From a virus: a DNA stretch of 64,000 bases. Shown piece by piece: positions 3,383 through 64,000 of this stretch (within the stretch, counting starts at the first letter, position 1; each line of letters starts with the position of its first letter). The notes beneath the pieces are model-generated. The model ran no database searches. It saw only the letters and a list, made by a program, of their open reading frames with translations, and was not told the DNA's origin. A program made the position numbers and the translations under genes. The DNA lies in the IMG/VR virus record IMGVR_UViG_3300045988_076436, one strand, 5' to 3'.

Positions 3383-3475
3383 TATCTTAACTTTCTTATG
3401 ATTGTGTAATATTCGTATGCAAAAATAGCCATATAAGAGGTGGACTGACTTTTAACTTTTGTGAGTTGCGTTGAG

Positions 3476-3483
3476 TACCTTTG
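3476..3483 (+). promoter_or_regulatory. Bacteroidota-type -7 box TAccTTTG
   Basis: Perfect TAnnTTTG 24 nt upstream of ATG 3507, in the divergent intergenic region 3383-3506. A conserved 16-mer GACTTTTAACTTTTGT lies just upstream (3447-3462). Confidence 0.45.
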
Positions 3484-3506
3484 TATAGAACAGAACCGTG
3501 ATTTTT

Positions 3507-3956
3507 ATGAAATACTTTGGCAGCATATTGGATTTTACAAGGGAGCGCAATGCCGACCTTATGAGGGTGTACCGCGACAGACTTGCCGAGGCAAGCATCA
3601 TCATCATGCCTGTTATCTTTCAGTTGGTGGCCGACTCTCCAGCTTCGCGTTTCTGGGTGAGCGAGGAGCGCGCGGCCATTGTCATTTCCGCTATGGCGGC
3701 AGGAAAGCCCATGCCGCGAATGAGGAGCAACAAGCGTGAGATGTTCGAGGAGATTTACCGCAGATACCTCCTCATGCGTGAGGATTATCCCGACAAGTCG
3801 GTCTATGAGTTGGTTACGAAGATAGTCAATCAACCTGCGCCCAAGTTCTACCTCACGCCTCGCACGGTCGGGGAGTTTATTTACCGCATAAAGAATGGAT
3901 GGTATGACAACCAATACGATAGATACAGAGATTGCCGCACTGCTTGCGGAGAATGA
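3507..3956 (+). CDS. small DNA-binding protein (small-terminase or Mor-like late-activator candidate)
   Basis: ORF-track 3498 is a GTG; the first ATG is 3507 (MKYFGSILDF...). C-terminal helix-turn-helix-like FYLTPRTVGEFIYRIKNG. Located directly upstream of, and overlapping, the large terminase. Confidence 0.5.
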   Translation: MKYFGSILDFTRERNADLMRVYRDRLAEASIIIMPVIFQLVADSPASRFWVSEERAAIVISAMAAGKPMPRMRSNKREMFEEIYRRYLLMREDYPDKSVYELVTKIVNQPAPKFYLTPRTVGEFIYRIKNGWYDNQYDRYRDCRTACGE

Positions 3957-23100: not shown

Positions 23101-26100
23101 CTACCTCGGCTTGCTCGGCAGCTTTCTGTGCCGCAATGCGTTTCTGCTCCCCGACCTGCGCCACGGCTGCATCGTGCATCTGCTTGTCGCGCTCACGTTG
23201 CTCTGCCTCACGCTGTTCACGAATTGCACGCTTACGCTCGTTCATAAGGGCGTAAATCCTCGACCATGCGCCCAGTGTCTCCTCTGCCTCCGCCACTTGT
23301 GCGTTGTACTGCTCCATGGCGGCATTGTAGTTGGCATCGGCCTCCTGCTGTGCCTTGACCATCGCCATAGGCGAACCTTTGAGGGACGGTGCTTTCTTGG
23401 TCGGCTGTTTCTTCTTCAGCGCATCGAGTGTCTTTTGCGCTTGCTCCACCTGCGCATTGACAATGGCGGTGGTGTTGGCCTCGTTGCCGCCTGTAACCTC
23501 GTTGAGCGCGTCAAGGGCAGTCTCCTTGTCGGCCTTCTCAAACATGGGTTCGCCAGTCTCCTCATTAAGAGGAACACGCTCCAGTGCAGTCGGCTGGCGG
23601 TTGGCCTCTTTCCACTGCACGCCTTGCGCTTCAAGTTGGTGCTGGGCAAGCTCATTTCCTCCACGCGCCATCTGTACAAGTTCTTCAGTTGTCGGAGAGG
23701 CAGGAGCAACAACATCATTGTCTTGCGGTGCGGAATTATCTGAAGCCTCCTCGGTCGCATCCGCATCTTCGGCATATTCTCTCGTCCATACCGGATTACC
23801 ATCCGCATCATTAATGCTCTCGACCATATTCTCAAACTCCTCGACAGGGATAATCTGCACACGCTTTCCGTTTAACGGCTCGTCTGTGCGTATCTCTACA
23901 CCGTCATCGCTGATATTCTGCACCTCGCCATGAACGTTTGCACCATCACCGTCAAGGAGTGTAAAGGTGTCATTCACGCCATATTGTACACCCTCGAGCG
24001 TTTTTTGTACACTTTCGCCATCATTCTGTACATTTTCATCCGATTTTGGTACGCTTTCACCATTTTCCATACCACCAAGCACGGCCTCATGCTCAGCTTG
24101 AATGTTGGCATAAGCCTCGTCAAGTTCGGCTTGTGGGTCAATGGCATCACCGAGATTGAAGATTTGGTCGGGACTGGTAAACTTGTATTCGCCTGTCTCG
24201 GCATCGCATATCACAATGCTTTGGTCGGAGTTCTGTGTGTCTATGCCTGTACCATCGGGAAGTACTGCGACATTACCTTTTACAATGTACACAGGCTTGT
24301 CGTCCACCTTCATGGTAGCTGGTTGCACCATGCCGTTGTCCTTGTGGGTGTGTCGCTCCACATTGGCGGCTACCTCCCTGCGCTTATTCTCCATCGCATC
24401 GTTGGACGCATCCTGCACACCGTCCATCGCTGCCTTGGCATTGATGTAGTAGAGTACCGCATTCTGCTGGTCTTCCGTCAGTTCGGGGTCGTTGGCCAAT
24501 GCCCACGGATTATCCTGTATCTCGGCCATGCGCATTTCTGCGTCCGTGCCGAAAGCGTCCTCACATTCCTGCAAGGCTTCTTTCATGCGAATGGATATGG
24601 CATCAATATCGGCTTTCGCGTCCGCGTCTCCTTGCTCCATTTTGTCCCACAACAGGCGAGACTGGTCGTAAACGGCTGAGGCTCCTGCCTCCTCGTCCGA
24701 CATGGGTTGCTCGGCTTCCTTGCTTTGCTCCGGGAACAACCGCTCTATGTAGTCCTGCACAGCAGCCTTTTCAGGGTCAGTACGCTTGCTCGGCTCTTTT
24801 TTGATGGCCGCGTCCACATCTACGCCTGTCTCTTCCTTGATGGCTGCACGGATAGCCTCTGGACGTTCTGCGTCTGCCATGCCTCTGTTCTCTTCCATGA
24901 ACTTGTCAATGGCATCGACCATCTGCCCATAGTTGGCGATTGCGTCCTTGTCGCCCTCCTTTGCAGCTTGGTAGTTGCGCTTGACGGTTTCGGGGTCAGC
25001 ACCGGGGGCAACGGCTTCAACAGCTGCGTCCCACACCTTGTTGTCGGCTTTAGCCTCGGTGTAACGCTCACCTACATCAACGCTGTTGAGTTCGGCCTGT
25101 CGCATGATTTTGTCCTGCTCCCTCTTGGCTGATGCCTCGTCTGCAAAGCGTCTGTTCGTTACGACCTCGCCATTGGCTGTAACGGACTTCACGAAGATAT
25201 TGCCGTGTTCGTCCTTTTCGGTGGTGTACCCGGTAACAGTACCCATCGGCAACTGATGCCCGGTGAGGATATAATATGCCTTGGCTCTTGCGCTCTGGCT
25301 CACATTCGGGTCTTGCATGAGGCGTTCCATAGTCTCGTAACCGTCAAACTCGGGGTGTGTCTTGAGCCACTGCTTGCCCAAATCCTCAACCTCGGCTTCG
25401 GGAATGTCAAAGTTCATTACCTTTCCGTCCGTGGTTGTCGGCTGTTTTGCCTTGGCTTTGGGCTGCTGTTTTGGTGTACGCGTGAAGAGTGCCGCAAGGT
25501 CGCCATAGCCGTACTTCTGCAACTCCTCGCGCTCTTCCTTGGTGAATACCATGTCGCGCGGACTTGCGTCCAACTGCTTACGCAACAATTCACCAAAACT
25601 CATGCGGTTGTGATTGCGCTCCTGCATGGTCTTGGGGTTCTCGATAGGGCGCAACCCTGCAATAACCCTCGGAGCGGACTTCACCATGTGCTGACCCTTG
25701 AAACCGAGCATCATCGCCATGTTGTCCGTCCACACGTCCCATGCACTGCGCTTATTGGGATTGCCATCTTCCAACTTGGAATTTTCAATCCATTCGGGAG
25801 TAGAGAAGATTGTCCCCTCGGCAACGGTTGATGTCGCAAGTTCTCCAAAACGGATACCTCCCTTACCATACACGTTTGATGTACTTTTTACCCATTTGTC
25901 GGCAACATTGCCCAACAATGGGGAGATAGTGCCAGTTACAGAGCCAAGGATAGTGCCTCGTCCTGTCGATTTCAAGATGTCCTCTGCCGAATATCCCTCA
26001 TTCTCGCCTGTCTGCGGATTGATGTGTCCGCCATGCAGCCACTGGCTCTCGCCCTCCTTGATGCCCTCGTATGTGCCGAAGTTCAAGCCTCCACCAACCG

Positions 26101-30394: not shown

Positions 30395-30646
30395 TTGAAG
30401 TTCTTGTTTGATACCTTTGCCGTGAATTCAAATTACGAAAACATTGCCATGCTTTTGCAGAATGGCACGTCTGTGAAAATTTATGCGGACAATTTCTCCG
30501 TTTCAAACATTAGACTGCTGGCACAAACTGCTGTCAAGCATGGAGCGGTATTGCATCTTGTTGTCAATCCCGACAACATTCTTGCAGACAACCTCAAGCT
30601 CATTTCGCAGGATGGACGCAAAAACATCTTTGTTGAGTTTGTCTAA
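30395..30646 (+). CDS. hypothetical small protein (weak call)
   Basis: The ORF-track start is a TTG; the first ATG gives MLLQNGTSVKIYADNF... (30449). Convergent with the integrase, overlapping its stop by 4 nt. The composition looks protein-like but nothing else supports it. Confidence 0.3.
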   Translation: MKFLFDTFAVNSNYENIAMLLQNGTSVKIYADNFSVSNIRLLAQTAVKHGAVLHLVVNPDNILADNLKLISQDGRKNIFVEFV

Positions 30647-32136
30647 AACCCTTTACCCTTAGTTCTTTCGTACACCGCTTCTCTGTCGGTGTCCACGTTC
30701 TTGATGCGGAACTGCACGGCACACCTGTCCGGGATAGTGTCGGGCAGTTTCGCTGCAAGTCGGACAATCACCTCATCAATGTTGCTGAAACCAATGTCGC
30801 TCACCTCGGCCAACACCTCACCACGGAAGTACGCCCTTGCATAAATCATGTACTTTGGCGCAATACGGAACATCGTGTCCTTGCGTTCTTCCACATCGTG
30901 CGCCAAGCCCTGCTTGCTCTTTGCCGTGCTGAAGAAGATGAAGTCAATCACTTTTGCGTTCAGTTCCCATGCAGGGGAGAAGTCCAGCTTGATGTAGCCG
31001 CGCGTGATGGTGCGTCCGTGCGAGTGGTTCATGGCAAAAGCCACCTCGTCAATGGTCGCTCCGCAGTCGTTCTGCGCCACCGTTCCCCAAGTATGGCGGA
31101 ATGTGTACGCCCTGTATTGCTTTTCCTTGGGTATGCCCAGACTCCTGCAAATCTGCTTGATGCCGTTGTTCACACCTGCACAGAACGAGTCGCTGTCGCA
31201 AAAACGCTTGTGGAAACGGAACAGGTAAGGGTCGTTAGGCTCTGCCAAGTATTTCTCCACCAACGGCTGTATCACTGGCTCAACCCTCATTTCGATGTAC
31301 GCATCATCGGTGCGCGTCTTTTTCGTCTTGGCTCTGTTGTAGCACAAGCAGCCGTTTCGGTAGTTCTCTTTCCGCATCTCGAAAAGGTCAACCGTGTTGA
31401 TACCTGCAAGGCAAAGTATCATCTTCGACACGTCACGCCCAATCTCGGGCAATGGATCAATCATTTTCGTCTCGGGCAATGGGGCAGCGAAGAACACGCG
31501 GCACTCCTCTGGGCTGATGGCAATCTTTGCCGTGCGGTCAGCCTGTGGTATCTTCACCTTGCCCCAAGGGTTCGTCTTGATGCGGATAACTCCGTTGTCG
31601 TAGTCGTTGTATTCCGCCACGGCAGCACGGAACACCTGCCTCATGCATACCGGGTACATCTCCTTTGCCCTGTGCGTCTGTTCCAACGACTGCACCCACA
31701 GGTTCACGAAAGTGGAGGTGAGTTGCCCGAACATCACCCTCGTTGTCACTGCAAACCGCTCCATGTGCTGGAGTGCCAGCTTGTAGTTCTTCGCATTCCT
31801 CAACTGTCCGTTGTCAATCATGCGGTTTATGTGCAGGTGCGCATAGTCCGAAAAGCACAAGTCCTCGTCCTCCTTGGTCACATACTCGATTATCTGCTTG
31901 ACCGTCCACTTTGAACTATCCACACGGTTGAGCAGTTCTGTGAAACGGAGTATGCGCCTCATGCAATACTCGTTCACGAAAGGGTCGGTGATGTCATTGT
32001 TCTTGTCGAGATAGTCTTTCGTAACAACCTTGTCGGTCTTGATGTATCCGGGCTTGCGGTTCTGCATCACCCGAATGTACACTTGGAAGAAACCGTCTTT
32101 GCGCGGTCTCCTGGTTACTGGTTTGAACATTGCCAT
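30643..32136 (-). CDS. tyrosine recombinase / phage integrase
   Basis: C-terminal catalytic region AYTFRHTWGTVAQNDCG...MNHSHGRTITRGYIK (HxxR, H, Y). Length ~500 aa with an N-terminal arm/SAM-like region as in Bacteroidota integrases. ORF-track 32163 is a TTG; ATGs at 32136 and 32130. Confidence 0.88.
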   Translation of the reverse strand: MAMFKPVTRRPRKDGFFQVYIRVMQNRKPGYIKTDKVVTKDYLDKNNDITDPFVNEYCMRRILRFTELLNRVDSSKWTVKQIIEYVTKEDEDLCFSDYAHLHINRMIDNGQLRNAKNYKLALQHMERFAVTTRVMFGQLTSTFVNLWVQSLEQTHRAKEMYPVCMRQVFRAAVAEYNDYDNGVIRIKTNPWGKVKIPQADRTAKIAISPEECRVFFAAPLPETKMIDPLPEIGRDVSKMILCLAGINTVDLFEMRKENYRNGCLCYNRAKTKKTRTDDAYIEMRVEPVIQPLVEKYLAEPNDPYLFRFHKRFCDSDSFCAGVNNGIKQICRSLGIPKEKQYRAYTFRHTWGTVAQNDCGATIDEVAFAMNHSHGRTITRGYIKLDFSPAWELNAKVIDFIFFSTAKSKQGLAHDVEERKDTMFRIAPKYMIYARAYFRGEVLAEVSDIGFSNIDEVIVRLAAKLPDTIPDRCAVQFRIKNVDTDREAVYERTKGKGF

Positions 32137-53401: not shown

Positions 53402-53436
53402 TAAAAAAGGGACACAAGATTGCTCCTGCGTCCCTC
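53402..53436 (-). terminator. rho-independent terminator candidate
   Basis: Minus strand AGGGAC(53435-53430)...GTCCCT(53413-53408) followed by TTTTT. Confidence 0.45.
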
Positions 53437-53455
53437 TGATAGGTTCTCGTTTCCC

Positions 53456-53929
53456 TTACTGGAGGTCAAACACGCTCCAGTCTATGTTGTCTTTTTCTTT
53501 CCAACCGTCCATGATGGCGTTGAGAATGTAGGCTGATGCCTCCTTGCTGAACTTGATGAAGTCCTCTCTTGTCTCAAAGGTGTAGTACACTGGCGTTGCG
53601 TCCGCCTCCTCGTTGAGTTTCAGCGTGAGCGGATAGGCTATGCTCTCGTTGTTTTCCAAAGATGCGTAGTTGCGCTGCTTCTCGTCCGACAGCCATACCT
53701 TGATGCCGTCATACTCAAAGCGGTTCACAATCTTGTCCTTGGTCTCTGCGTCTATCGTGTCTCTGACAAGCTGCTTTATCTCGTCCATCGTGGGCTTGCG
53801 GCTGAACGTGTGGCGGTATTCATAGTTGCCGTCCTCGGTCTCGTAATAGCCGAAGTAGAGCAGCCATTTGTTCTTGCCTATGCGTTGCAGTCCATCTTGC
53901 CGTTGGGTTGTGCCGTATATCTTCTCCAT
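53456..53929 (-). CDS. hypothetical protein (157 aa) downstream of the RT
   Basis: Clean ORF, mixed alpha/beta style, with no resemblance to an Avd four-helix bundle. Confidence 0.55.
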   Translation of the reverse strand: MEKIYGTTQRQDGLQRIGKNKWLLYFGYYETEDGNYEYRHTFSRKPTMDEIKQLVRDTIDAETKDKIVNRFEYDGIKVWLSDEKQRNYASLENNESIAYPLTLKLNEEADATPVYYTFETREDFIKFSKEASAYILNAIMDGWKEKDNIDWSVFDLQ

Positions 53930-54004: not shown

Positions 54005-55495
54005 TTAAGTGAAGTTATACTTGCGCTTGCTGCCGTCAAACACCTCACACTTGATGATGGTCTCGAATGGAAAGCCGTCCTCTATGTCGCTTATCTGGTC
54101 AAGTATGCCTTTCATCTCCAACGAGGCGGTGAAGAACTTGCCCCATTCCGAGTTGGCTGGATTGCGGAATGACACCAAATAGCGGTCTTCGCCCTCTTTT
54201 GTGTCTATGCCTGTCTCAAAGTCGTGAATTTCTATCGGTATGTTCACGATGTCACCGAGGCGTGTCACCTTGCCGGGAAAGCGTTTCTTGCCGTCAGCAG
54301 GTGTATAGGTTACGCCCATTTCTGAAAACTTCTTCATGTGTTTACCTGTTAATGTATAATATAGATGTTTACAATCTGCGTGGCAAGCCATTCCCTTGAA
54401 TGACCCTATTATCTGTTGCCGCCTCTTGCGCGACTTTATCTTGGCGAGTTTCCGTGCAGCGTTCACCTTGGTACGCTTTCTCAGCAGGGAGTAGTCCCCA
54501 TAATCAACAAAGCCGAGTGCGTCCATTCCTGCACTGATGGGTGCAACTTTCTCACTCGGCTTTATTATCAGATTGTAGGGTTTGCATAGTCTATGCAGGG
54601 TGTCCCTGTGTTTCCACAACTCTTTCTTGTTGTCTCCAAGTATGTATATGTCGTCACAAAAGCGGTTGTAGTTGTCTTTTCCACATTCCTCTATCATGGC
54701 ATGGTCTATGTCGTTGTGGTACAGGTTGCCGAAAAACTGCGAGGAGCGTAGTCCCTTGCTGATGCCTACGTTGTCATTCGGGTGCAGAGCCTTTACAAAG
54801 TCTATGAGTATGGGCAGCAGCACTGGGTCGGCAATGTAGCGTTTTATTATCTCTATCAGTCGGTCATGCAGTATGTGGTCGTAGTAACCTTTGTAGTCGC
54901 TTTGATAGTAGTATATGAGTTTCGGATTGTTCCGCCTTGCCTCCTGCATCTTGTGATACAATCCGTGTGGCCCTCTTCCCTCTATCGAGGCTGCGGTGTT
55001 CTCTATCAGTATGGGCGCAAGGTGTTTTTCCACTATCTCCATGATGGCGTTGCTGCCCACACGCTCTATGACGGACGGTGCTTGCACGGTTCTTATCTTC
55101 GGGCCGTCTGCCGTCTCAAACGATTTAAGGTGCTTGATGCGGAATGTGCCGTTGGCTATCTGTGCCTTTAGCATGGCGATGATGTCCGCCTTGCGTTTCA
55201 TGTAGCGCACCATGCGTGGCGTGCATTCCACTCCGTCTATAACAATATTCTCCCTCCACCGTAGGCCGTTGCGAGTATCTGCGTTGTGCAGGTTCGACAT
55301 GACGCGCTTGAACGAGCGTTCCATGTTCTCGTCCGCTATGATTTCGGGGATAAGGTCTAATAACGGAAAACAGATAGAAGTCTTTTCTTCTACCTGCCCC
55401 AATAGTTCTTCCAATGTATTGACAGCCTTCCTGTCCTGTGGGGAGATACTTGCGCACTCCCCACATGTGGTTAATGTCGTGTTCCGGCTTTCCAT
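54005..55495 (-). CDS. DGR reverse transcriptase (496 aa from ATG 55495)
   Basis: RT motifs YYYQSDYKGYYDHILHDRL (motif A region), ISKGLRSSQFFGNLYHNDIDH (the SQ..N motif typical of DGR RTs) and YNRFCDDIYILG (YxDD variant). A cognate TR lies immediately upstream. ORF-track start 55558 is a GTG inside an RNA hairpin. Confidence 0.88.
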   Translation of the reverse strand: MESRNTTLTTCGECASISPQDRKAVNTLEELLGQVEEKTSICFPLLDLIPEIIADENMERSFKRVMSNLHNADTRNGLRWRENIVIDGVECTPRMVRYMKRKADIIAMLKAQIANGTFRIKHLKSFETADGPKIRTVQAPSVIERVGSNAIMEIVEKHLAPILIENTAASIEGRGPHGLYHKMQEARRNNPKLIYYYQSDYKGYYDHILHDRLIEIIKRYIADPVLLPILIDFVKALHPNDNVGISKGLRSSQFFGNLYHNDIDHAMIEECGKDNYNRFCDDIYILGDNKKELWKHRDTLHRLCKPYNLIIKPSEKVAPISAGMDALGFVDYGDYSLLRKRTKVNAARKLAKIKSRKRRQQIIGSFKGMACHADCKHLYYTLTGKHMKKFSEMGVTYTPADGKKRFPGKVTRLGDIVNIPIEIHDFETGIDTKEGEDRYLVSFRNPANSEWGKFFTASLEMKGILDQISDIEDGFPFETIIKCEVFDGSKRKYNFT

Positions 55496-55589
55496 ATTTA
55501 TATGCTGTTGCCGAGGCTCTAATCCCTCGGAGTATGTTTGTGGCAATCCTCGTGCCACGTCAGAGACCTCCGATTAAACTTAACCAAGA
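55496..55589 (-). ncRNA. DGR spacer RNA between TR and RT (structured)
   Basis: Two 6-bp hairpins on the coding strand: GTGGCA-N7-TGCCAC (55540-55558) and CCGAGG-N8-CCTCGG (55511-55530). Confidence 0.5.
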
Positions 55590-55705
55590 GAATTTCAGCC
55601 GCCCACCGTAGTTCGTGTTCGAGTTCGAAGAAGCGTTGTTCGCGTTCGCATAGGCGAGACCGCTGTTCGCATTCGAGTTGTTGCCAGACCGCAGAACACA
55701 GCGGC
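55590..55705 (-). repeat. DGR template repeat (TR)
   Basis: 116 bp aligned without gaps to 56545-56660 (offset 955). All 19 mismatches are T on the plus strand, i.e. A on the coding strand, of this copy. It encodes an AAC-rich frame: RCVLRSGNNSNANSGLAYANANNASSNSNTNYGGRLKF. Confidence 0.95.
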
Positions 55706-55736
55706 GCGTGGGATTTTCTGCCTTTTGTTCCTTTGC

Positions 55737-56039
55737 TTACATAATCGGACGCACTATGTCCACTTTCAGACCAAGCGCATCAATGATGCGGAAGAACATG
55801 CCGACACCCGGCTCTATCACGCCTTTCTCTATGCGTGAGATATAGGTTTTGTCTGTTCCCACTTTCTTGGCAAGGTCTGATTGCGTCATGTGCTCTTGCT
55901 TTCTTGCGTCAAGGATTATCTGACCTACACAATAGTTGGTTGCCTCCTTTCTGAACGCTTCTCTTTCTGCAGTTCCTACTGCGCCATACTTGGCATCAAG
56001 AATGGCATCGAAACTGCTAATGTCATTTCTTTGCTGCAT
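55737..56039 (-). CDS. XRE-family HTH antitoxin (HigA-like)
   Basis: QIILDARKQEHMTQSDLAKKVGTDKTYISRIEKGVIEPGVGMFFRIIDALG. ATG 56039 (ORF-track 56060 is a TTG). Overlaps the toxin gene by 17 nt. Confidence 0.8.
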   Translation of the reverse strand: MQQRNDISSFDAILDAKYGAVGTAEREAFRKEATNYCVGQIILDARKQEHMTQSDLAKKVGTDKTYISRIEKGVIEPGVGMFFRIIDALGLKVDIVRPIM

Positions 56040-56358
56040 AATATTCCTTTTTAAGTTCAAGTGCTTTCTCTATCTCCTTTGAGGGCGTCTTTTGGGTTTT
56101 CTTCTGAAAGCCGTTGAACAGCATCACGATGTTGCCCTCATCAAAGATGAAGAATGCACGGTATATATTCCCATTGTAACTGGCTCTAATCTCATAGAGT
56201 CCGTCCTTGATGAACTTCACAAATTTCTCACTCACTCTCTCCTGCATCTTCAGCACATCAAGCACATAGTCTATCTTCTTCTGTGCGCCCATTTCCAAAG
56301 AGCGGTAGAACGTGAGGAAGTAGTCTTTGTAAAGTAATATCTTCCTCTCTGAATTCAT
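56023..56358 (-). CDS. Gp49/HigB-like (RelE-superfamily) toxin
   Basis: FLTFYRSL...KKIDYVLDVLK...KFIKDGLYEIRASYNGNIYRAFFIFDEGNIVMLFNGFQKKTQKTPSKEIEKA matches the Gp49-like (DUF891) pattern. The toxin-first gene order is as in HigBA. Confidence 0.8.
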   Translation of the reverse strand: MNSERKILLYKDYFLTFYRSLEMGAQKKIDYVLDVLKMQERVSEKFVKFIKDGLYEIRASYNGNIYRAFFIFDEGNIVMLFNGFQKKTQKTPSKEIEKALELKKEYYAAKK

Positions 56359-56362
56359 GCTG

Positions 56363-56370
56363 CAAAGGTA
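56363..56370 (-). promoter_or_regulatory. -7 box TAccTTTG (minus strand) 4 nt before the toxin ATG
   Basis: Plus-strand CAAAGGTA at 56363-56370. It lies downstream of a terminator-like hairpin, so the TA pair seems to have its own, nearly leaderless promoter. Confidence 0.4.
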
Positions 56371-56423
56371 ATACTTAAAGTTGATATATCCTACAACTTT
56401 TGCAATTATTTTGCATCACTCAT

Positions 56424-56443
56424 AAAAAACTCGCTTACGCGAG
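56424..56443 (-). terminator. small GNRA-loop hairpin plus T6 after the DGR target gene
   Basis: Minus strand CTCGC-GTAA-GCGAG followed by TTTTTT. Confidence 0.45.
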
Positions 56444-56452
56444 AAAGCAGGG

Positions 56453-56487
56453 AGAGGGAGCAGCCTCCTATCGTCGGCTCTCCCTCT
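56453..56487 (-). other. 12-bp (one bulge) GC-rich hairpin downstream of VR
   Basis: AGAGGGAG(C)AGCC / GGCTCTCCCTCT with a 10-nt loop. It begins about 30 nt after the target stop codon and about 57 nt after the VR 3' end. Confidence 0.7.
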
Positions 56488-56517
56488 GACGCTTTTTTCG
56501 TGGCTGCGCTTGCCGCT

Positions 56518-59500
56518 TTATCCGACTATTACGAATTTGCCGCGGAAGGCCAGCCGCCCACCGAAGCCCGTGAGCGAGAACGAAGAAGCGAAGTTCGCGA
56601 CCGCAAAGGCGAGACCGCTGTTCGCATTCGAGACGCCGCCAGACCGCAGAACACAGCGGCCTCTGCTGCCGGGAAACCACAAACCTGCCGCATAGTGGGT
56701 GGTGTACTTGCTCGTGTCGGTCTGATGCACCTTGCTTGGCAAGATGTCGCACTTCGCTCCATGCACCACTCTCACAACGCAGTTGCCGTTAGAGTTCACA
56801 CTCTGCACCACACGCTCGGTTTTCTTCACCGGGTCATAGATGTGGAATTTGTAGTCTATGGGGTCATCGTTGGTCTCCACACAGCGGTTCTTGTAGAACG
56901 TCTCGTAGCTCTGCACGTTTCCTGCTATGTAGTCCATCCATTCCGAGTCGCAGCCCACATAGTGTTTGAGTCCCATGATGGAGTTCATTGCGTTGCCCAC
57001 ATACGAGGTGTCGGCCATACCTATGTTGTCGAGGCTGTTCAGCGTGGCATCGTGTGCGCCATTGCCAACAACAGACTGCTCGTTGGTCGTGCCGTGGGTC
57101 GCCCACCACAGGTTGCTGATTTCCTTGTGCTGCTCGTAGTCTTGGAGCTGGTAGCCCTCTCCGCGCATGTGCGCACTGTTTTGGAAGTCCTTTGCCGTGT
57201 AGTGTATCGTCCCGGTCGGTGTCTCTGTCGGGTTGCCGTCAGTGTCGTATGCCCATTCTGCCGAGGTCTGCGAAGTGCCGTCTCCCTTGCGTGAGCGCAC
57301 CGCGCCCGATATGCTCCTTGGTCGTTTCAGTCCGTCTATGGTGATGGGGTATGTTCCCAAGAGGCTGTCGTTCTCGCCAACGGTGTGCTCCGTCCATTCG
57401 GGTTCTATGGCCTCTATATGCTCGCTATCAACGGCAAGACACAGGCTGTCCTCTATGTCGCGGTACGAGGTGAAGTACATCCACTTCGCTCCGCCAGGCA
57501 CATCGCAGAACACGTAGTTGCCTATCGAGAAGTCGAAGTAGGTGTGGCTCACCATCATGTTGAACTTGCCTACTATCTGTCCGTTCTCGTCCGTGAACAC
57601 GGCTCCGAGCCTTGCGTGGTTCAGTCCCGGCCATCTCACCTGCTTCATGCCCTCCACGTCCATGCGGTAGGCGTTCACGTTGGCAGCGGTGGTGATGATG
57701 TTCTCGTCTATCACCGTGCCTACCTCTGCCTCGTCAGCATACACGCCTGTGTTCTCCGCATAGAGCAGTGCCGATAGCATGGCCTCGCGCTTGTTGTTCA
57801 CGGTGGATAGCGGCTCGTTCTCCGTGGTCGAATAGACGATGTACTTCTGTTGGTTCTTGTAGTCGTTCACGCCCTTGTACCAGTGGTGGGGCAGATGGTG
57901 GAAGATGTCAAAGCCCTCTCCTGCGCTATCGCCCACATCGAAACTCTCGCCTGTGGCAAGATAGTTGAAGTCGCTGTCGCTCAGTTGCACGCCCTCCATC
58001 TGTTTGAGTTTGGAGTTGTAGGTACACTTGTAGGCGTGGGTCTCCTGCAATATCTTCAGTGTGTGTCCGCTCGCCACAAAGGTCTTGTCGTAGTCCGAAC
58101 CTGTCTTGTTTTCGGGGTTGCTGTATCGCTCACAGAAGTCTCCGCTCACGATGTCGTCTATCTTCACCACCGAGAACTGCGAGTTGATGACGGTCAGTTT
58201 CGGGAAGTATTTCTGCAATGCCTCCACCTCGCTGTCCTCCACAAGTTCTGTCAGTATCCATCGGCCGATGATGCCGCTGCACTGCCCGGTCTCATCGTAG
58301 GTGCTGCCGTTCGCGTCTATGCCCACGGCTTCGCTCTGCATGATGCCGCGCAGCATCTCCACGCTGGCGGTGGCGTTCACGCCCGGTATGCGCACGCTCT
58401 TCAGCTGTCCTGCCGTGGTTATCTGCCGCAGCAGGGTCATGGTGTCGATGTGCGGACACTCGTCAAGGAACATTTTCTTCACGTTCGTCATTCCTGCTAT
58501 GGTCAGTCCGCCAGGATAGGTCAGCTTGGGCAGGTTCTTGAAGTAGAGCGTGGTCATGGTGGCTGGCAGTTCAAGGGTCTCTATCGGGGCTGTCTCGGCA
58601 AGGTCTATGCTCGACAGTTGCGAACCGCTCGCCAACACCTCTTTCAGTCTCGGGCAGTACGAGGCGATGATGCTTGTTACCTTGGTGTTGCGTGCGTCTA
58701 TGCGTCTGAGGAAACTCTTGTTGCCCATGTTGAGCTGCGTGATTGCTCCGCTTTCCTCGGCTGGCGTGTAGTCCGCTCCGCCAAGTATCAGTTCTTGCAG
58801 CATCGTGCAGTTCGAGATGTCCCAACCCTCGGCTTTCGGGGTGCAGCCGCTGATGTCAAGACTGGCAAGGCGTGTCGCTCCGAACACGTAGAGCATCGTT
58901 CCTGCGCCTGTGGCGGTCATGCCGCTCTTCAGCGTGTAGCTTTCTCCTGCTTTCAGATAGCAGCTGTCCACACAAGCGTCCGCACGGTCCACTCCTAATC
59001 CGAAGAAGCCGTCCTGCACTGCCGTTATCTTGATGCTGATGTCCGTACCCACGGCACGCATCTTGAACGGATTAGTGTACAGCTCGCCCACTTGGTAGTA
59101 GCCGTCACGGTAGGCAAAGCGTTTCTCAAACGTCACGGGCAAGTCCTCATATCGCAATCCGTGTACGGCATAGTAGTAGTTTGCACCTGCCTTGGAGTTC
59201 TCGATGTACTTGCGCTCTCCGTCAAACGAGCTGGTTATCTTCGCCCACTTCGCTATGCGGTCGGTGATCCAGAGTTTCTTGCAGCCGTCTGCGGAGAATA
59301 TCTTGATGCCGTCTGCCTCCGCGCTGCGCATATCGCCCGCTATGTCGTGCAGCGTGATGGTGGTCTTGCCCTCATCTTCAAGCCAGAACTTGTCAGCTGC
59401 ATAACCTTGCTTGAACATTACAGAATTCCAACCTTGGTAATAATGCTTAGTGTCTGTCACGCTGTCCAAATCCCATGGCACAGTAATACCGCAGTCATTG

Positions 59501-62500
59501 TCAGCAAGCCAACAACAGTCTCCGTCATACCAATGGTTGAAGTAGGCGCGTATGCTGCCGTTGATGTCAAGATAGAACGAAATCATCATGTTCTTGCTTC
59601 GTTGGTCAACAGCAAGCACATAATCAGTACCTATAATGTAACAACCCGTAGAACGAACGTTGGCATAAAGGTAGAGTTCCTCGCAGAACTTTTTCAATCG
59701 GTTCTCCTTTGTTCCTGCCACGCTCTTGCCGTGCAGGGTGATGTTTCCGTCTGCCTCGGTACGGTCTTGCGAGCATTGCTGTGTCCATAGCAGCCACTTG
59801 TATAGGTTGTACGGCACTTTCTTTCCCTTGGCGTAGAGGTCGTTCAAGTCGTCATCGTCGGGGTATCGGCTCTCGTAGTAGCCGAGCCACACGGGTTCGC
59901 CTGTCGATTGGTCTATGCGCATGAGGTCGTCCACGCTGTTCACGCCTTGCAGCCAACAGAACGAGTCGTATTTCAAGTACTCAAAGCACTCTACCGGGTT
60001 CAGCACCCTGCCTGTCACGCCCCATTTCTTGGTGCTCGTGTCATACTGCATCTTGCCTGTGGTGTCTTTCCACTTGCCTCCGCTGTATTTCACATACTTG
60101 TAGTCGTTCGTCAGGTACACCGTTCCCCAGTCGTAGTTGTTCACATCGTCTGCCAGCACCTCGGCAAGGCTCTTGTCCACTTCCGTGGGGTCGGCTGTGG
60201 CGGTGGTCTCCTGCATCGTGCCTGTGCCGTCATTCTCCAAGAAGATGTGCTTCTCTCCGCAGTTTTCGCTCAGCATGTAGATGTTCGAGGCTATCAGCTC
60301 TTCGCTCTTCGCCAAGGTCTGCACCTTGAAGATGTTGAGGTCTTGGTTTTTCTCGGCCACGAGTTCCACAAAGTCGCCATAGTTCAAGCAGTCGCTGTTG
60401 TAGCCGCTCACTTTCTCGAAGCCGAAGAACGATGGGTTGCCCTTGTCCACGTTGAAGTTGGCCTTGGCATGGAAGTAGGCGTAGGTCTCGTTGGTCGCGT
60501 CCACGCTCTGCTGGTCGGTGCGGAATAGGGCGCACGTCACGCTGTCGATGCTGGTGTTCATCGTGTCGCCTCCGTTGTAGGCATTCTGCGCTGGGGTCAT
60601 GTAGTCCGCTCCCATGGCTCGCTGGGTCTTGTTCATCAGCTCCATGGTCGCTCCGTTGTTCGCGCCTGTCGAGTCGGAGTAGTCCACCTTGATGGTGATG
60701 GTCTTTACCCACAAGCCTCCGTCTATCACCTGCACTTGGCTCTTCGCGGCCATCTTCTTGGCCTTTTGGAACTTGGCCAGTGCCACTGGGTCGTTCTTGA
60801 AGTCCTCCTCTGTGTGGAGCATCTCTATCTTGCAGCCTTTGAACTTGCCTTTCTTGTTCTTCACGGGCCGCAGCGATGAGGTCGTGCCTTGGTTTGTGGT
60901 CGGCACGTTGTACACCTTGCAGTCCTGCCATGGCCTGTCGGGGAAACGGATTACCCAGTCAAAGTATGCCTTGGTCTTTTTGTCTCCGTCCAGCTTGTCG
61001 AGGTAGCCGGGGTAGCTCTGCTCGATGTCGGGGGTGTCGGCATTCTTCAGCAGGGTCACGCAGCATAGTCCTGCGTTCATGCACGCTTGCATGGTCGGCC
61101 TGTCCTTGGTTGTTCCCTCTGCGGTCTGCGAGGCCATCACTTGGTTCTTCTCGTACTCCGTCAGCATGGCTGCGGTGTCTTTCTGTCCCACCAAGTAGTT
61201 GTTGAATGCCTGTCGGTAGTTGTAGTAGGTGGCCCAGCCGATGGCACGGTACAGGTAGATGTCGGCTTTCGTGCCGTCAAACTTTATCTGCATGTCGTTG
61301 TGGGCAAACTTCCCGGCATTGTAATAGGTGGCTGCGGCCTCGTCTCCGTTCACATATATCTTGATGGAGCCTATGCCGCTGTATGGGGCTATGCTGGTCG
61401 GCTCTATCACAATGTCGAAACGTGTCTCCTTGTCAGTGGCATACAGGGCTACGGCTGTCTGCTGTGCGCCCAAGTCATCGGGGTTGGCTGCGGTTGCTCC
61501 ATCACAGGTGAACACGAGTTTCTCGCCTGTCAAGTAGAAGCCGAGCTGGTTGTCGCCCAGGCAGTCGATGATGCGTGCCGTGCGGTCTTCCACATTTTTC
61601 ACCTTTACCGTGAAACTCAGTGCCATGCCGTTCTGTTCGATGCTGGTGTTGGCGAATGGCTTGAACGAGCACACGGCTTTCATGTCCTCGGCTATGCGGA
61701 GTGCCATGCGTCCCTTGTCGTTCTCCGTGCCGTAGGTGGGCGTGCCGTAGGTGTCCTTGACAAATCCGTTGCTCGACCAGTTGCAGTTCTCAACGGTGAT
61801 TTCCACTCCTCCGTCCTTGATGGTCTTGTCGGTCTCTCCGTTGCTGCGTGAGTCCATCGTGATGTTGAACTCGCGCATGGTAGTCACTTCCTCCACATCT
61901 ACAAGCGAGCCATCAACAATGAATGTGGCGGTTTCTGATGCGCTGTCTCCGCACGTCACTTTCACCGACACGCTCTTTGTGCCGTCATGCACGCTCTCCT
62001 GCACTTGCTTGGTGAACGTGTTGGTCTGTCCCCGGTAGGCCACAGTGGTGGTCTCCTGCGCTCCGTCATACCACACCACGGCTTGCGGCTCGTCCGTGTC
62101 GGCTGCATACACGGCATAGTCCACCTCGATGTTCTCATAGAGTTTTCTCTTGCCTTGCAGCTGCTCGGTGTACCAGCGCATGCCCACTATCGGGGTGTTG
62201 TTGCCGCTCTCCACCACCATGACGGCAGTGTGGAGGTAGTTGCCCACCACGCCCGAACCTACATCTTCTCCGTGTATGCGCAGGGGGTATGCGCCATGTG
62301 TCAGTGTCTCGCCCAAGCAGCTCTTCGGGTCTATGGTGATGGAGTGCGAGTAGGTGTCGAGAACTACGCTTGTGCCGAGTGTCTGCCACTCTCCGTTTAT
62401 GTATATCTCGGTTACTACCTTGATGCCTTTGTCCGATGCGTTGTTGGCAAACTTGTACATCGGTATGCTCTTGGCGGCTCCTCCTGCGGCAAGGGCGGTG

Positions 62501-64000
62501 CTTGCCGTGTAGTTGAGGGTCTGCACACTGCTGATGGTAACATCTACACCGCTCACGTTGATGTTCCTGCTGCCTGTGTTTCCTGCATCATCATAGGCGA
62601 TAAGTTGGAAACGCTTGGTGGTGGCGGTTACGAAGTAGCTGCTCACGTCCATTTCGAAGTCGTAGGTGTCTCCGCTTGCCGATGACGCTCTGTTGAACAT
62701 GAATGTCTCCAAGGTCTGCCCGGTGTCGCGATCTTTGAGCAGCACCTTTTCTATCATGTTGCTCAGTTCTTGGCTGCCTTGTGTGGTAACGCTTCGTACA
62801 GCAGCTTTCATCACCACGCTGCCGCCAGCCTTGGCATACAGCGGACTCTGCTCGAATTGTATGCTCACAATCGTACCTGTGCTTTCTCCGCCTCCTCCGC
62901 CTACGGCAAACTGCACCTCGTCGCCCACGGCTTCCTGCCCGGCATTCTGCAGTTGCAGCTTCACCACGCCCTGCGTCTCGGTGTCAATGTGCAGTGTGGT
63001 GGGTATGTTGGCGTATGCACCTCCTGTGGAGAATGCCTCCTTGCCGTCCTTTTCGGGGGTGTCCGAGGTCGGCACGGCATTGTTGCCGCCTCCTCCGAAC
63101 TCCACCCAAGGTTTCAAGTCTGCCGGGTTGATGTCGTCCACGGTGCGTGTGAACTGGTAGGCTTCCCACTTGGGCGAGCCGTTGCTGGTCACATCGGCTG
63201 TCTTATAGGTCAGCACGACACCGCTCTTCATATACGATAGTCCGCTTTCTTTCTCCTTGTCCTGCACAGCTTTGATGGCGGTCGAAAGGGTGTACTCGGT
63301 GTCCTCGCAGATGTCGTTCACGTTCACCGTGTTGCCTATGGCACTGCCGTTCGAGCCGAAGTCTGTCCAGTTGGCTTCGTTTTTCCAGTCGGTCTCGGTT
63401 TCCTTGCCGTAGTTCGTCCACTGCTTGTTTTGTATGCCTGTCTCCGAAAGAAACGACAGCACGATACCGGGTTTCATGTATCTTGCTTTGTTCTTCAAAT
63501 CGAAGATTTTTTCAAGCACCACGGAGAACGACACTTCACGGTCGCCCAACGACAACAGCACATTGGCGTTGATTGTGTTGCGGTTCAGCAACTCCGCGCT
63601 GTTCTCGTCTATCAGTTGTCGGCTGATGGTTGCCGTGCTCTCTGCCTCGCTCATGCGCTCCTGCAACTCCGCTCCCTCGTCACCGGGGAATGCCGTGCCG
63701 CTTTTATGACCGAGTGCCAAGTCCGAACCGATTACGACCAATTTCGTACCACCCCAACGGTAAGTCTTGTTGGTGGTTACGTCCATGAAGATTTTGCCGC
63801 TGTGGGGCTTGCGTCCCTGCATCGCCCCATCACCAAAGAGGTCTCCGTCCAACCAATTATTATAATAGGTAACGGTCGGACGCAGGTCAAAGTCTGACTC
63901 TGAGGGCTGCGAGTAGCACAATACAAACGTGTCGGAGTCTTTGTCGTACACTACGCTGCAATTCTCGTCCGTTGAAGATTTGCTGATTGACTGGTATTGC
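56518..64000 (-). CDS. giant fibre/receptor-binding-like protein, DGR target (>=2,477 aa; 5' end probably outside the window)
   Basis: Stop at 56518-56520. The ORF-track 'M' at 63951 is a GTG and the frame stays open to nt 64000. Leucine-rich-repeat stretch (LASLDISGCT...LQELILGG...LKEVLASGSQLSSIDL...). C-terminal C-type-lectin-like VR scaffold (GLKHYVGCDSEWMDY ... GGRLAFRG). Confidence 0.85.
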   Translation of the reverse strand, partial: QYQSISKSSTDENCSVVYDKDSDTFVLCYSQPSESDFDLRPTVTYYNNWLDGDLFGDGAMQGRKPHSGKIFMDVTTNKTYRWGGTKLVVIGSDLALGHKSGTAFPGDEGAELQERMSEAESTATISRQLIDENSAELLNRNTINANVLLSLGDREVSFSVVLEKIFDLKNKARYMKPGIVLSFLSETGIQNKQWTNYGKETETDWKNEANWTDFGSNGSAIGNTVNVNDICEDTEYTLSTAIKAVQDKEKESGLSYMKSGVVLTYKTADVTSNGSPKWEAYQFTRTVDDINPADLKPWVEFGGGGNNAVPTSDTPEKDGKEAFSTGGAYANIPTTLHIDTETQGVVKLQLQNAGQEAVGDEVQFAVGGGGGESTGTIVSIQFEQSPLYAKAGGSVVMKAAVRSVTTQGSQELSNMIEKVLLKDRDTGQTLETFMFNRASSASGDTYDFEMDVSSYFVTATTKRFQLIAYDDAGNTGSRNINVSGVDVTISSVQTLNYTASTALAAGGAAKSIPMYKFANNASDKGIKVVTEIYINGEWQTLGTSVVLDTYSHSITIDPKSCLGETLTHGAYPLRIHGEDVGSGVVGNYLHTAVMVVESGNNTPIVGMRWYTEQLQGKRKLYENIEVDYAVYAADTDEPQAVVWYDGAQETTTVAYRGQTNTFTKQVQESVHDGTKSVSVKVTCGDSASETATFIVDGSLVDVEEVTTMREFNITMDSRSNGETDKTIKDGGVEITVENCNWSSNGFVKDTYGTPTYGTENDKGRMALRIAEDMKAVCSFKPFANTSIEQNGMALSFTVKVKNVEDRTARIIDCLGDNQLGFYLTGEKLVFTCDGATAANPDDLGAQQTAVALYATDKETRFDIVIEPTSIAPYSGIGSIKIYVNGDEAAATYYNAGKFAHNDMQIKFDGTKADIYLYRAIGWATYYNYRQAFNNYLVGQKDTAAMLTEYEKNQVMASQTAEGTTKDRPTMQACMNAGLCCVTLLKNADTPDIEQSYPGYLDKLDGDKKTKAYFDWVIRFPDRPWQDCKVYNVPTTNQGTTSSLRPVKNKKGKFKGCKIEMLHTEEDFKNDPVALAKFQKAKKMAAKSQVQVIDGGLWVKTITIKVDYSDSTGANNGATMELMNKTQRAMGADYMTPAQNAYNGGDTMNTSIDSVTCALFRTDQQSVDATNETYAYFHAKANFNVDKGNPSFFGFEKVSGYNSDCLNYGDFVELVAEKNQDLNIFKVQTLAKSEELIASNIYMLSENCGEKHIFLENDGTGTMQETTATADPTEVDKSLAEVLADDVNNYDWGTVYLTNDYKYVKYSGGKWKDTTGKMQYDTSTKKWGVTGRVLNPVECFEYLKYDSFCWLQGVNSVDDLMRIDQSTGEPVWLGYYESRYPDDDDLNDLYAKGKKVPYNLYKWLLWTQQCSQDRTEADGNITLHGKSVAGTKENRLKKFCEELYLYANVRSTGCYIIGTDYVLAVDQRSKNMMISFYLDINGSIRAYFNHWYDGDCCWLADNDCGITVPWDLDSVTDTKHYYQGWNSVMFKQGYAADKFWLEDEGKTTITLHDIAGDMRSAEADGIKIFSADGCKKLWITDRIAKWAKITSSFDGERKYIENSKAGANYYYAVHGLRYEDLPVTFEKRFAYRDGYYQVGELYTNPFKMRAVGTDISIKITAVQDGFFGLGVDRADACVDSCYLKAGESYTLKSGMTATGAGTMLYVFGATRLASLDISGCTPKAEGWDISNCTMLQELILGGADYTPAEESGAITQLNMGNKSFLRRIDARNTKVTSIIASYCPRLKEVLASGSQLSSIDLAETAPIETLELPATMTTLYFKNLPKLTYPGGLTIAGMTNVKKMFLDECPHIDTMTLLRQITTAGQLKSVRIPGVNATASVEMLRGIMQSEAVGIDANGSTYDETGQCSGIIGRWILTELVEDSEVEALQKYFPKLTVINSQFSVVKIDDIVSGDFCERYSNPENKTGSDYDKTFVASGHTLKILQETHAYKCTYNSKLKQMEGVQLSDSDFNYLATGESFDVGDSAGEGFDIFHHLPHHWYKGVNDYKNQQKYIVYSTTENEPLSTVNNKREAMLSALLYAENTGVYADEAEVGTVIDENIITTAANVNAYRMDVEGMKQVRWPGLNHARLGAVFTDENGQIVGKFNMMVSHTYFDFSIGNYVFCDVPGGAKWMYFTSYRDIEDSLCLAVDSEHIEAIEPEWTEHTVGENDSLLGTYPITIDGLKRPRSISGAVRSRKGDGTSQTSAEWAYDTDGNPTETPTGTIHYTAKDFQNSAHMRGEGYQLQDYEQHKEISNLWWATHGTTNEQSVVGNGAHDATLNSLDNIGMADTSYVGNAMNSIMGLKHYVGCDSEWMDYIAGNVQSYETFYKNRCVETNDDPIDYKFHIYDPVKKTERVVQSVNSNGNCVVRVVHGAKCDILPSKVHQTDTSKYTTHYAAGLWFPGSRGRCVLRSGGVSNANSGLAFAVANFASSFSLTGFGGRLAFRGKFVIVG
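56545..56660 (-). repeat. DGR variable repeat (VR) at the 3' end of the target gene
   Basis: See TR. Encodes RCVLRSGGVSNANSGLAFAVANFASSFSLTGFGGRLAF, 8 codons before the stop. Confidence 0.95.

Follow-up and report, generated by a model that had tools for sequence, protein, structure and literature searches.

A mobile HigBA-type toxin-antitoxin cassette lies between the variable and template repeats of an Avd-less diversity-generating retroelement in Bacteroidales phages

The DNA analysed here (the window) is the stretch of 64,000 nucleotides (nt) under IMG/VR record IMGVR_UViG_3300045988_076436. It carries a diversity-generating retroelement (DGR), all features of which lie on the minus strand. 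Between the variable repeat (VR) at the end of the DGR target gene and the template repeat (TR) ahead of the reverse transcriptase (RT) gene sit a HigB/Gp49-family toxin gene and an XRE-type antitoxin gene. By comparing this element with its relatives, we conclude that a mobile HigBA cassette has probably displaced the promoter segment of TR, so that TR and RT would now be co-transcribed with higBA, and that the toxin-antitoxin (TA) pair is neither a substitute for the accessory protein Avd nor needed by the DGR. The cassette, equipped with its own inverted repeat, its own -7 box and the toxin ATG, would have replaced a short promoter-bearing stretch directly upstream of TR.

Relatives with and without the toxin-antitoxin pair

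Relatives were gathered through the RT, which yielded 69 IMG/VR loci and 55 loci from Bacteroidales genomes, among them two cultured phages, BS-TP4 (PQ571277) and BKO1-TP3 (PQ571269). The comparison set consists of the 105 relatives in which both repeats could be located; their RTs are 42-100% identical to that of the window and were grouped by average-linkage clustering. The first-pass annotation of the window, made from its letters alone, had asked whether the TA insertion recurs in related phages, and the answer is a clear polymorphism: the pair is present in 41 of the 105 relatives and absent from 64. The VR-TR gap measures 823-928 nt in the former and 94-261 nt in the latter. Since the same layout is found in 41 related loci, the arrangement is not a product of chance.

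In the TA-less relatives, the gap has a simple and recurrent order: the target stop, a GC hairpin, usually a small hairpin, a single -7 box, the sequence GGCAGA(A/T)AA(T/C)CCC and then TR. The box follows the motif TAnnTTTG, which we take to be the Bacteroides -7 promoter element, and an exact copy of it ends 16-41 nt upstream of TR in 54 of these 64 loci. By comparison, in all 41 TA-bearing relatives the sole box from VR to the start of RT is the one just upstream of the toxin gene, with none inside or after the cassette. The closest comparison is provided by L049, without the TA pair, and L047, which carries it, both belonging to the same 64% RT clade. In L047, about 790 nt stand in place of the promoter-holding segment of about 34 nt seen in L049, and both flanks are kept. 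The insert of L047 consists of an inverted repeat, a -7 box, the toxin gene and the antitoxin gene.

The DGR is active in both states. In the window, the 110-nt VR (56551-56660) falls within the last 47 codons of the target gene and is 85% identical to TR (55596-55705), and all of the mismatches (16/16) are at TR adenines. The exact TR of the window was found in 11 loci with 10 distinct VRs. More generally, VR/TR mismatches occur almost exclusively at TR adenines in TA-bearing and TA-less relatives alike, and within groups of loci sharing an identical TR, distinct VRs were seen in 10/11, 13/13 and 13/13 loci. The adenine-specific mismatches and differing VRs of the TA-less loci demonstrate that the DGR works without the TA pair and without Avd.

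A HigB/HigA-type module in the VR-TR interval

The toxin gene (56023-56358) encodes a basic protein of 111 aa with an isoelectric point (pI) of 9.5, which matches the Pfam family PF05973 (Gp49) with an E-value of 7e-23 and 80.9 bits, against a cut-off of 23.9. It also matches phrog_3445, annotated as 'toxin', and S. pneumoniae HigB (6af3; E 5.6e-5), and bears a weak likeness to M. tuberculosis HigB1 (E 0.16-0.2). The antitoxin gene (55737-56039) encodes an XRE/HigA-type protein of 100 aa, whose C-terminal helix-turn-helix (HTH) matches HTH_3 with an E-value of 6e-14; its matches in the PDB are the HTH proteins HipB, SinR and Xre antidote. The toxin gene comes first, and the two genes overlap by 17 nt. 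Both are under strong purifying selection, with ratios of nonsynonymous to synonymous substitution rates (dN/dS) of 0.06 for the toxin and 0.02-0.08 for the antitoxin, and the toxin open reading frame (ORF) is intact in every TA-bearing locus except L006. PADLOC returned generic matches alone for the pair (the NsnC C-terminus for the toxin, HTH families for the antitoxin) and assigned it to no known defence system. Judged by sequence, this is a genuine HigB(Gp49)/HigA(XRE) type II toxin-antitoxin module with a presumably active toxin. The first-pass annotation had proposed a Gp49/RelE-like toxin with an XRE antitoxin, an identification that PF05973, HTH_3, the 17-nt overlap and the HigB 6af3 match all uphold; its coordinates for the target stop, the hairpins, the box, both genes and TR on the minus strand also proved correct.

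Allelic variants of the module offer a view of how its parts go together. In L012-14, L055 and L084, where RT is 94-96% identical to that of the window, the toxin is only 63-66% identical and residues 1 to ~35 of the antitoxin diverge too, while the antitoxin HTH (residues 40-100) is identical to that of the window. The upstream and promoter DNA is likewise identical in L012 and L055, the two variants in which it was read. Such co-variation of the toxin with the antitoxin N-terminus, at a fixed HTH and fixed upstream DNA, is the pattern expected of a cognate toxin-binding region joined to an unchanging DNA-binding domain and its operator. The N-terminal part of the antitoxin is thus presumed to be the toxin-neutralising region.

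Promoter head of the cassette and expected transcription of TR and RT

The Bacteroidetes-type -7 box of the window cassette, TACCTTTG (56363-56370), is followed 4 nt downstream by the toxin ATG, and it is the sole exact TAnnTTTG on the minus strand from 56370-56363 down to 53960. This box-N4-ATG spacing is constant in every window-type cassette examined, whether within or outside DGRs, and suggests that the toxin mRNA, and hence the higBA message, is leaderless. Upstream of the box and overlapping the -33 region, we read an inverted repeat with arms of 7+7, AAAGTTG-N10-CAACTTT (56377-56400). In L019, L047 and L111 the arms are kept and the spacer varies; similar inverted repeats lie upstream of the same cassette in the non-DGR loci L185, L198 and L199; and in BS-TP4, whose antitoxin differs, another repeat takes up this position. 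We regard the repeat as a candidate HigA operator to which the antitoxin would bind. A sigma-70 promoter scan, irrelevant for Bacteroidetes, gave matches no commoner than in shuffles and was set aside.

On the upstream side, the cassette is preceded by a small hairpin, CTCGCGTAAGCGAG, followed by T6 (56424-56443). Both a terminator scan and folding mark this element as terminator-like, and it is kept at the left junction of TA-bearing and many TA-less relatives, where it would insulate the TA cassette from transcription of the target gene. On the downstream side, TR starts 31 nt past the antitoxin stop. The intervening linker (55706-55736) is unstructured on folding, and the box scan, the terminator scan and the fold revealed no TAnnTTTG and no terminator-like site in these 31 nt, in agreement with the first-pass annotation, which had seen no promoter box between the antitoxin stop and TR. 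The right junction of the linker, GGCAGA(A/T)AA(T/C)CCC, is common to the TA-less relatives. The next strong terminator-like hairpin after the cassette, with a 14-pair stem and a T-run, stands at 53406-53437, past the gene that follows RT (ORF157), and probably ends a higB-higA-TR-RT-ORF157 unit.

With a target terminator upstream and nothing promoter- or terminator-like before TR, TR, RT and ORF157 are most likely carried on the higBA message, of which TR, the spacer RNA, RT and ORF157 would form the distal part. Read-through of TR-RT from the TA promoter, which had been put forward in the first-pass annotation, is also what the comparative positions of the boxes are best read as indicating. 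By analogy with other type II systems, DGR expression would then stand under the control of the TA promoter, that is, under autorepression by the antitoxin. A regulatory coupling of the DGR to the TA module is therefore plausible.

An Avd-less lineage

The families PF05635 and TIGR02436 are, on our understanding, those to which Avd belongs. Neither occurs among the listed Pfam and NCBIfam matches of the 37 small ORFs of the whole window, where the 25 strongest families per table reach down to E-values of about 0.06 (Pfam) and 0.09 (NCBIfam). This extends to the entire window the earlier observation that no Avd-like ORF was to be seen. Furthermore, the VR-TR gap of the 105 relatives holds no gene type besides the TA pair, and in none is there room for Avd.

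Two other points of the first-pass annotation are not supported. It had placed the TA pair where Avd usually sits; since the ancestral VR-TR gap of 94-261 nt, as preserved in the TA-less relatives, is too short for an avd gene, the pair does not occupy an Avd slot. It had also held that the layout seems atypical. As regards the missing Avd, DGRs without avd are already published: Wu et al. 2018 found no accessory gene in 29% of the DGRs surveyed and described a Bacteroides lineage without avd, in whose genomes a profile search found none elsewhere (PMC5758913). The lack of Avd is thus not atypical. The RT lineage as a whole is without Avd, its absence is ordinary for that lineage, and the TA pair is no stand-in for it.

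Mobility of the cassette and collapse of the DGR

A toxin-led scan of IMG/VR returned 254 relatives, and the best 80 of these were checked for an RT within 3.5 kb. Forty-one of the 80 had no RT of any DGR type in that range. In representative non-DGR loci, the cassette adjoins a putative integrase, lipoprotein-like ORFs or other Gp49/XRE pairs, and most of those examined have an inverted repeat of this kind ahead of box and ATG, L156 and L171 being exceptions. At L162 (5034-5677) and L171 (4139-4429), the neighbours of the window-type cassette are additional Gp49/XRE pairs or a single XRE antitoxin-like gene; such loci look like small TA islands in other Bacteroidales phages. As its alternative to a regulatory role, the first-pass annotation had considered a moron that landed in the DGR. 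The occurrence of the same cassette family in many phage loci with no RT nearby supports that idea, and further traits of a moron are present: the promoter head travels with the cassette, which varies among close relatives and is found in other contexts.

Within the DGR family, the cassette also moves independently of the RT. TA-bearing and TA-less loci interleave among RTs more than 95% identical. The window-type cassette occupies the same slot in L111, L178 and L179, where RT is 49-51% identical; the toxins of L047 and L111 are 86% identical and their RTs 49%, and L113, the closest RT relative of L111 (85%), has no cassette. A second HigBA-type cassette, 36%/32% identical to that of the window, fills the same slot in BS-TP4, L073, L075 and L078. 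The cassette tree and the RT tree thus disagree. Between the window and L111, nucleotide similarity of 75% extends over promoter head, cassette and TR and stops short of RT. These patterns suggest recombination as the means by which the cassette passes between related phages. The exchange may run through the conserved flanks, VR and hairpin on one side and TR on the other, which would explain both its spread and its restriction to the VR-TR slot.

The cassette can outlive the retroelement. Seven loci (L156-L161 and L183, at about 3400-4300) have a window-type cassette with a toxin 88-89% and an antitoxin 95% identical, and no RT was found in any of the seven. In L156, a truncated TR remnant follows the cassette, and the DNA ahead of the toxin consists of a segment duplicated in tandem, in which a different palindrome stands.

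The reverse, loss of the whole VR-TR interval, has happened in BKO1-TP3 (L002, 6700-6870). This phage lacks both a TA pair and a distinct TR; TR-type sequence forms the end of its target gene and continues directly into the spacer and RT, the outcome of a recombinational collapse of VR with TR. Because its RT is 99.8% identical to those of L075 and L078, both intact with a BS-TP4-type cassette, the cassette was very probably deleted in the collapse. A single VR/TR hybrid repeat was read directly in L002 and L207, and a short target-to-RT gap without a second repeat points to collapse in L059 and L063 and, probably, L086 and L087. Recombination between the DGR's own direct repeats thus destroys the DGR.

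Weighing the explanations

Several observations count against the proposed displacement of the TR promoter by the cassette. Ten of the 64 TA-less relatives have no exact TAnnTTTG, so the consensus scan is not a complete promoter detector. The 41 TA-bearing loci go back to a small number of independent insertions, perhaps two to four, which means that the '0 of 41' figure for boxes inside or after the cassette is phylogenetically inflated. One-mismatch boxes do occur inside the cassette, and a non-consensus promoter may lie within the antitoxin gene. Lastly, the antitoxin of L156 is 95% identical but its upstream region differs, which weakens the assignment of the operator. The boxless TA-less relatives, apparently active all the same, and the one-mismatch boxes also speak for a different account, in which an unrecognised promoter within or after the antitoxin gene drives TR and RT and the TA pair is a separate passenger. 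We consider this improbable: no exact box is found inside or after the cassette in any of the 41 TA-bearing loci, no near-match keeps its position from one cassette variant to another, the linker is a mere 31 nt, and the native box has been removed by both cassette types. A promoter shared with higBA might, on the other hand, be the very reason for the cassette's presence, if antitoxin-controlled, stress-responsive transcription makes hypermutation conditional and the cassette has been selected in this slot for that effect. The sole box does precede the toxin in 41/41 TA-bearing loci, the VR-TR slot is precisely where two unrelated HigBA cassettes, as well as one that was transferred horizontally, are found, and no other gene type occurs in that gap among the 105 loci. 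Yet VR diversification is equal in the TA-less relatives, the cassette is equally common away from DGRs and persists after loss of RT in L156-161 and L183, BKO1-TP3 is viable despite having lost it, and the bias towards one slot can be explained by recombination through highly conserved flanks. Such an adaptive switch is in our view unlikely.

TA loci are known to stabilise neighbouring DNA, for example in integron arrays and in integrative and conjugative elements, and the cassette lies exactly within the interval that VR and TR, as direct repeats of 110 bp, allow to be deleted. A lysogen losing this interval would also lose the antitoxin and be penalised, so that a working DGR is preserved, and collapse of VR with TR does occur in the family (L002, L059, L063, L207 and probably L086 and L087). 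We nevertheless hold such a guard against collapse to be quite unlikely: the collapsed derivative BKO1-TP3 is a viable temperate phage isolate, a deletion that happens during lytic replication would carry no penalty, and the roughly six events, about one from a TA-bearing and four to five from a TA-less background, are too few for rates. Replacement of an accessory factor, with the HigB and XRE proteins taking over the role of Avd in cDNA synthesis or homing, is hardly credible. Nothing but the position between VR and TR and the basic character of the toxin (pI 9.5) speaks for it, and it is effectively refuted by the 64 TA-less, Avd-less relatives with the same adenine-specific diversification; moreover, both proteins carry ordinary TA family signatures, and the cassette is common outside DGRs. 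We thus favour the reading in which a mobile HigBA cassette displaced the TR promoter, the TA pair being best seen as a selfish or defensive moron that is not required for mutagenic retrohoming and is not an Avd substitute.

Reverse transcriptase, spacer RNA and ORF157

The RT gene (54005-55495) encodes 496 aa with an RVT_1 domain. The protein matches the RT of the BPP-1 DGR (bRT, 8ub7) with an E-value of 1.5e-19 over residues 105-380, the GxxxSQ motif included (GLRSSQFFGNLY in the window RT, GSLTSQLFANVY in bRT 8ub7). A structured RNA lies at 55430-55575, matching the Rfam family RF03068 (RT-3 RNA) at full length with 61.7 bits (gathering score 40.5) and an E-value of 4.9e-12. The match spans the spacer between TR and RT and reaches 65 nt into the RT ORF. 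This RT-3-type RNA is probably the DGR spacer RNA of the lineage, the counterpart of the BPP-1 spacer and presumably equivalent to it in function.

The C-terminal domain of RT (54005-54352; about 110 aa, residues 382-496) is the best-conserved part of the protein among relatives and matches phrog_19665. Its AlphaFold2 (AF2) model is a beta-barrel with a mean confidence (pLDDT) of 92.4, for which Foldseek returned weak matches in the PDB to oligonucleotide-binding (OB) folds of the kind found in single-stranded DNA-binding proteins (SSB). In many metagenome contigs, the domain is called as a separate protein of 110 aa. The sole context of such a free-standing domain that was examined, L207, is a collapsed DGR whose RT has an in-frame stop: a TAA stands directly before the C-terminal domain. 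The RT translation of L066 contains two stops. The in-frame stops of both loci may represent recoding or pseudogenes.

Directly after RT comes ORF157 (53456-53929), which encodes an acidic protein of 157 aa with a pI of 4.8. Nearly all of the ~120 relatives have it downstream of RT, in almost every case as the very next gene, at identities down to 27%. Its AF2 model has an alpha/beta fold with a pLDDT of 94.5; a Foldseek search of the model against the PDB gave nothing significant, and Pfam yielded a sub-threshold match to DUF4376 and nothing else. Both ORF157 and the RT C-terminal domain were considered as a cryptic Avd and ruled out, the former being acidic with an alpha/beta model and the latter a beta-barrel, neither of them a four-helix bundle. 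Size, charge and context place ORF157 beside the published accessory protein CH1, an acidic, motif-less protein of 160-169 aa with a pI of 4.7 that lies beside RT, is confined to avd-less DGRs and goes with a lack of HRDC and MSL as well (PMC5758913), and by description ORF157 fits CH1. That the part played by Avd in other DGRs might fall here to ORF157 or to the RT C-terminal domain is speculation.

Target gene, GC hairpin and phage

The target gene (56518-63822) encodes 2434 aa from an ATG, or 2477 aa from a GTG at 63951, and its stop ends at 56518. The product is probably a tail or receptor-binding protein. Its C-terminal 400 aa are conserved beside RT in relatives; a Pfam scan of the last 499 aa, in which a C-type lectin or Ig fold was sought, found no domain. 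Downstream of the target stop lies a GC hairpin with a bulged G (56452-56488), with a folding energy of -27.1 kcal/mol and a z-score of -3.7. It recurs 40-80 nt past VR in most relatives, TA-bearing or TA-less, with the bulged G kept. The variants of its stem (GAGGGAG, GAGTGAG, GATGGAG, GGTGGAG) are compensatory, and in L111 and L119 the hairpin is formed by unrelated sequences. It may be the terminator of the target gene, a recognition hairpin for the DGR target site, or both.

From its gene content, the window appears to come from a temperate Bacteroidales phage. Its phage genes encode an integrase-like protein, a P22-like portal, an SU10-like capsid protein, RecT and an amidase endolysin. 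The integrase-like protein (30643-32136, minus strand; 497 aa, with a SAM-like N-terminal domain) is consistent with a temperate lifestyle, as are an HU/IHF-like DNA-binding protein and a second HTH_3 protein among the 37 small ORFs. The portal gene adjoins a single ORF of 6448 aa (8111-27457, minus strand), which together with the 2434-aa DGR target takes up about 40% of the 64-kb window.

Relation to known systems

The DGR of BPP-1 (mtd-VR, avd, TR, spacer RNA, brt) shares with that of the window a homologous RT with GxxxSQ, adenine-specific mismatches, a VR at the 3' end of a tail-type gene, and a TR directly upstream of RT, the two being separated by a structured spacer RNA. BPP-1 transcribes TR together with the gene that lies in its VR-TR interval. 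Unlike BPP-1, the DGR of the window lacks Avd and has an acidic 157-aa gene after RT; its RT is 168 aa longer and carries the additional C-terminal beta-barrel; and the gene pair upstream of TR is a TA module that is dispensable for diversification. The avd-less DGRs that Wu et al. 2018 describe (Architecture A, Lineage 3/3A, Bacteroides) have in common with it the lack of avd in the cassette or elsewhere, Bacteroidales hosts and the order target-TR-RT, and their CH1, likened to ORF157 by description alone, is also a small acidic protein of unknown fold beside RT. That survey, in contrast, reports no TA genes between the DGR parts, and the word 'toxin' does not appear in its main text (PMC5758913).

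With the Gp49/DUF891 HigBA systems (S. pneumoniae 6af3, M. tuberculosis HigB1, phage N15 gp49), the pair shares the toxin family, the overlap with the toxin gene first, an XRE-HTH antitoxin with a separate N-terminal part, and an inverted repeat in the promoter. It differs from them in lying within the leader of a retroelement operon with no terminator of its own before TR, and in a spacing that suggests a leaderless mRNA, typical of Bacteroidetes. The resemblance to phage morons and to the TA or defence cassettes of prophages covers the promoter of its own, the presence/absence polymorphism, the horizontal exchange and the many unrelated phage contexts. Unlike a moron that merely sits between transcription units, however, the window-type cassette displaces the native promoter of an essential DGR part, and one slot has received two cassette types.

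The cultured phages BS-TP4 and BKO1-TP3 (Gut Microbes 2025, PMC12694917) belong to the same phage family and carry the same DGR. BS-TP4 is annotated in the order target, 'Addiction module toxin RelE', XRE regulator and RT, a layout like that of the window. The report notes DGRs in these temperate phages and does not discuss the TA pair, 'toxin' occurring 0 times in its main text (PMC12694917). A full-text search of the literature on DGRs and toxin-antitoxin systems, which did not reach the supplementary gene tables of Wu 2018, brought up no account of a TA pair in the VR-TR interval. The TA cassette between VR and TR is accordingly a new architectural variant, while avd-less DGRs themselves were already known.

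Significance

The comparison carries a general caution, namely that relatives should be checked before the absence of Avd, or an unusual gene in the VR-TR interval, is taken as a sign of functional replacement. It also identifies the direct repeats of the DGR as a liability, as the collapse of VR with TR in real genomes demonstrates, and the same repeats may act as recombination handles that move the cassette between DGRs with RTs only 49-51% identical.

To our knowledge, the natural regulation of DGR hypermutation is largely unknown. In this DGR, which is widespread among gut phages, about 40% of the sampled relatives appear to rely on a TA promoter for their TR RNA and RT. TA-bearing loci and their close TA-less relatives, with a simple dedicated promoter in the same place, form a natural pair in which a conditional activity of the DGR could be tested, and two of the states are available as cultured phages, BS-TP4 with a cassette and BKO1-TP3 collapsed. 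A more far-reaching proposal, to which we give little weight at present, is that HigBA cassettes have been recruited repeatedly to the VR-TR interval through a benefit to the retroelement, either by gating TR-RT or by penalising collapse. Were the gating version true, degradation of the antitoxin would switch on hypermutation of a receptor-binding protein through a leaderless promoter, and under either version DGRs would have, in the cassette, their first described natural module for regulation or maintenance.

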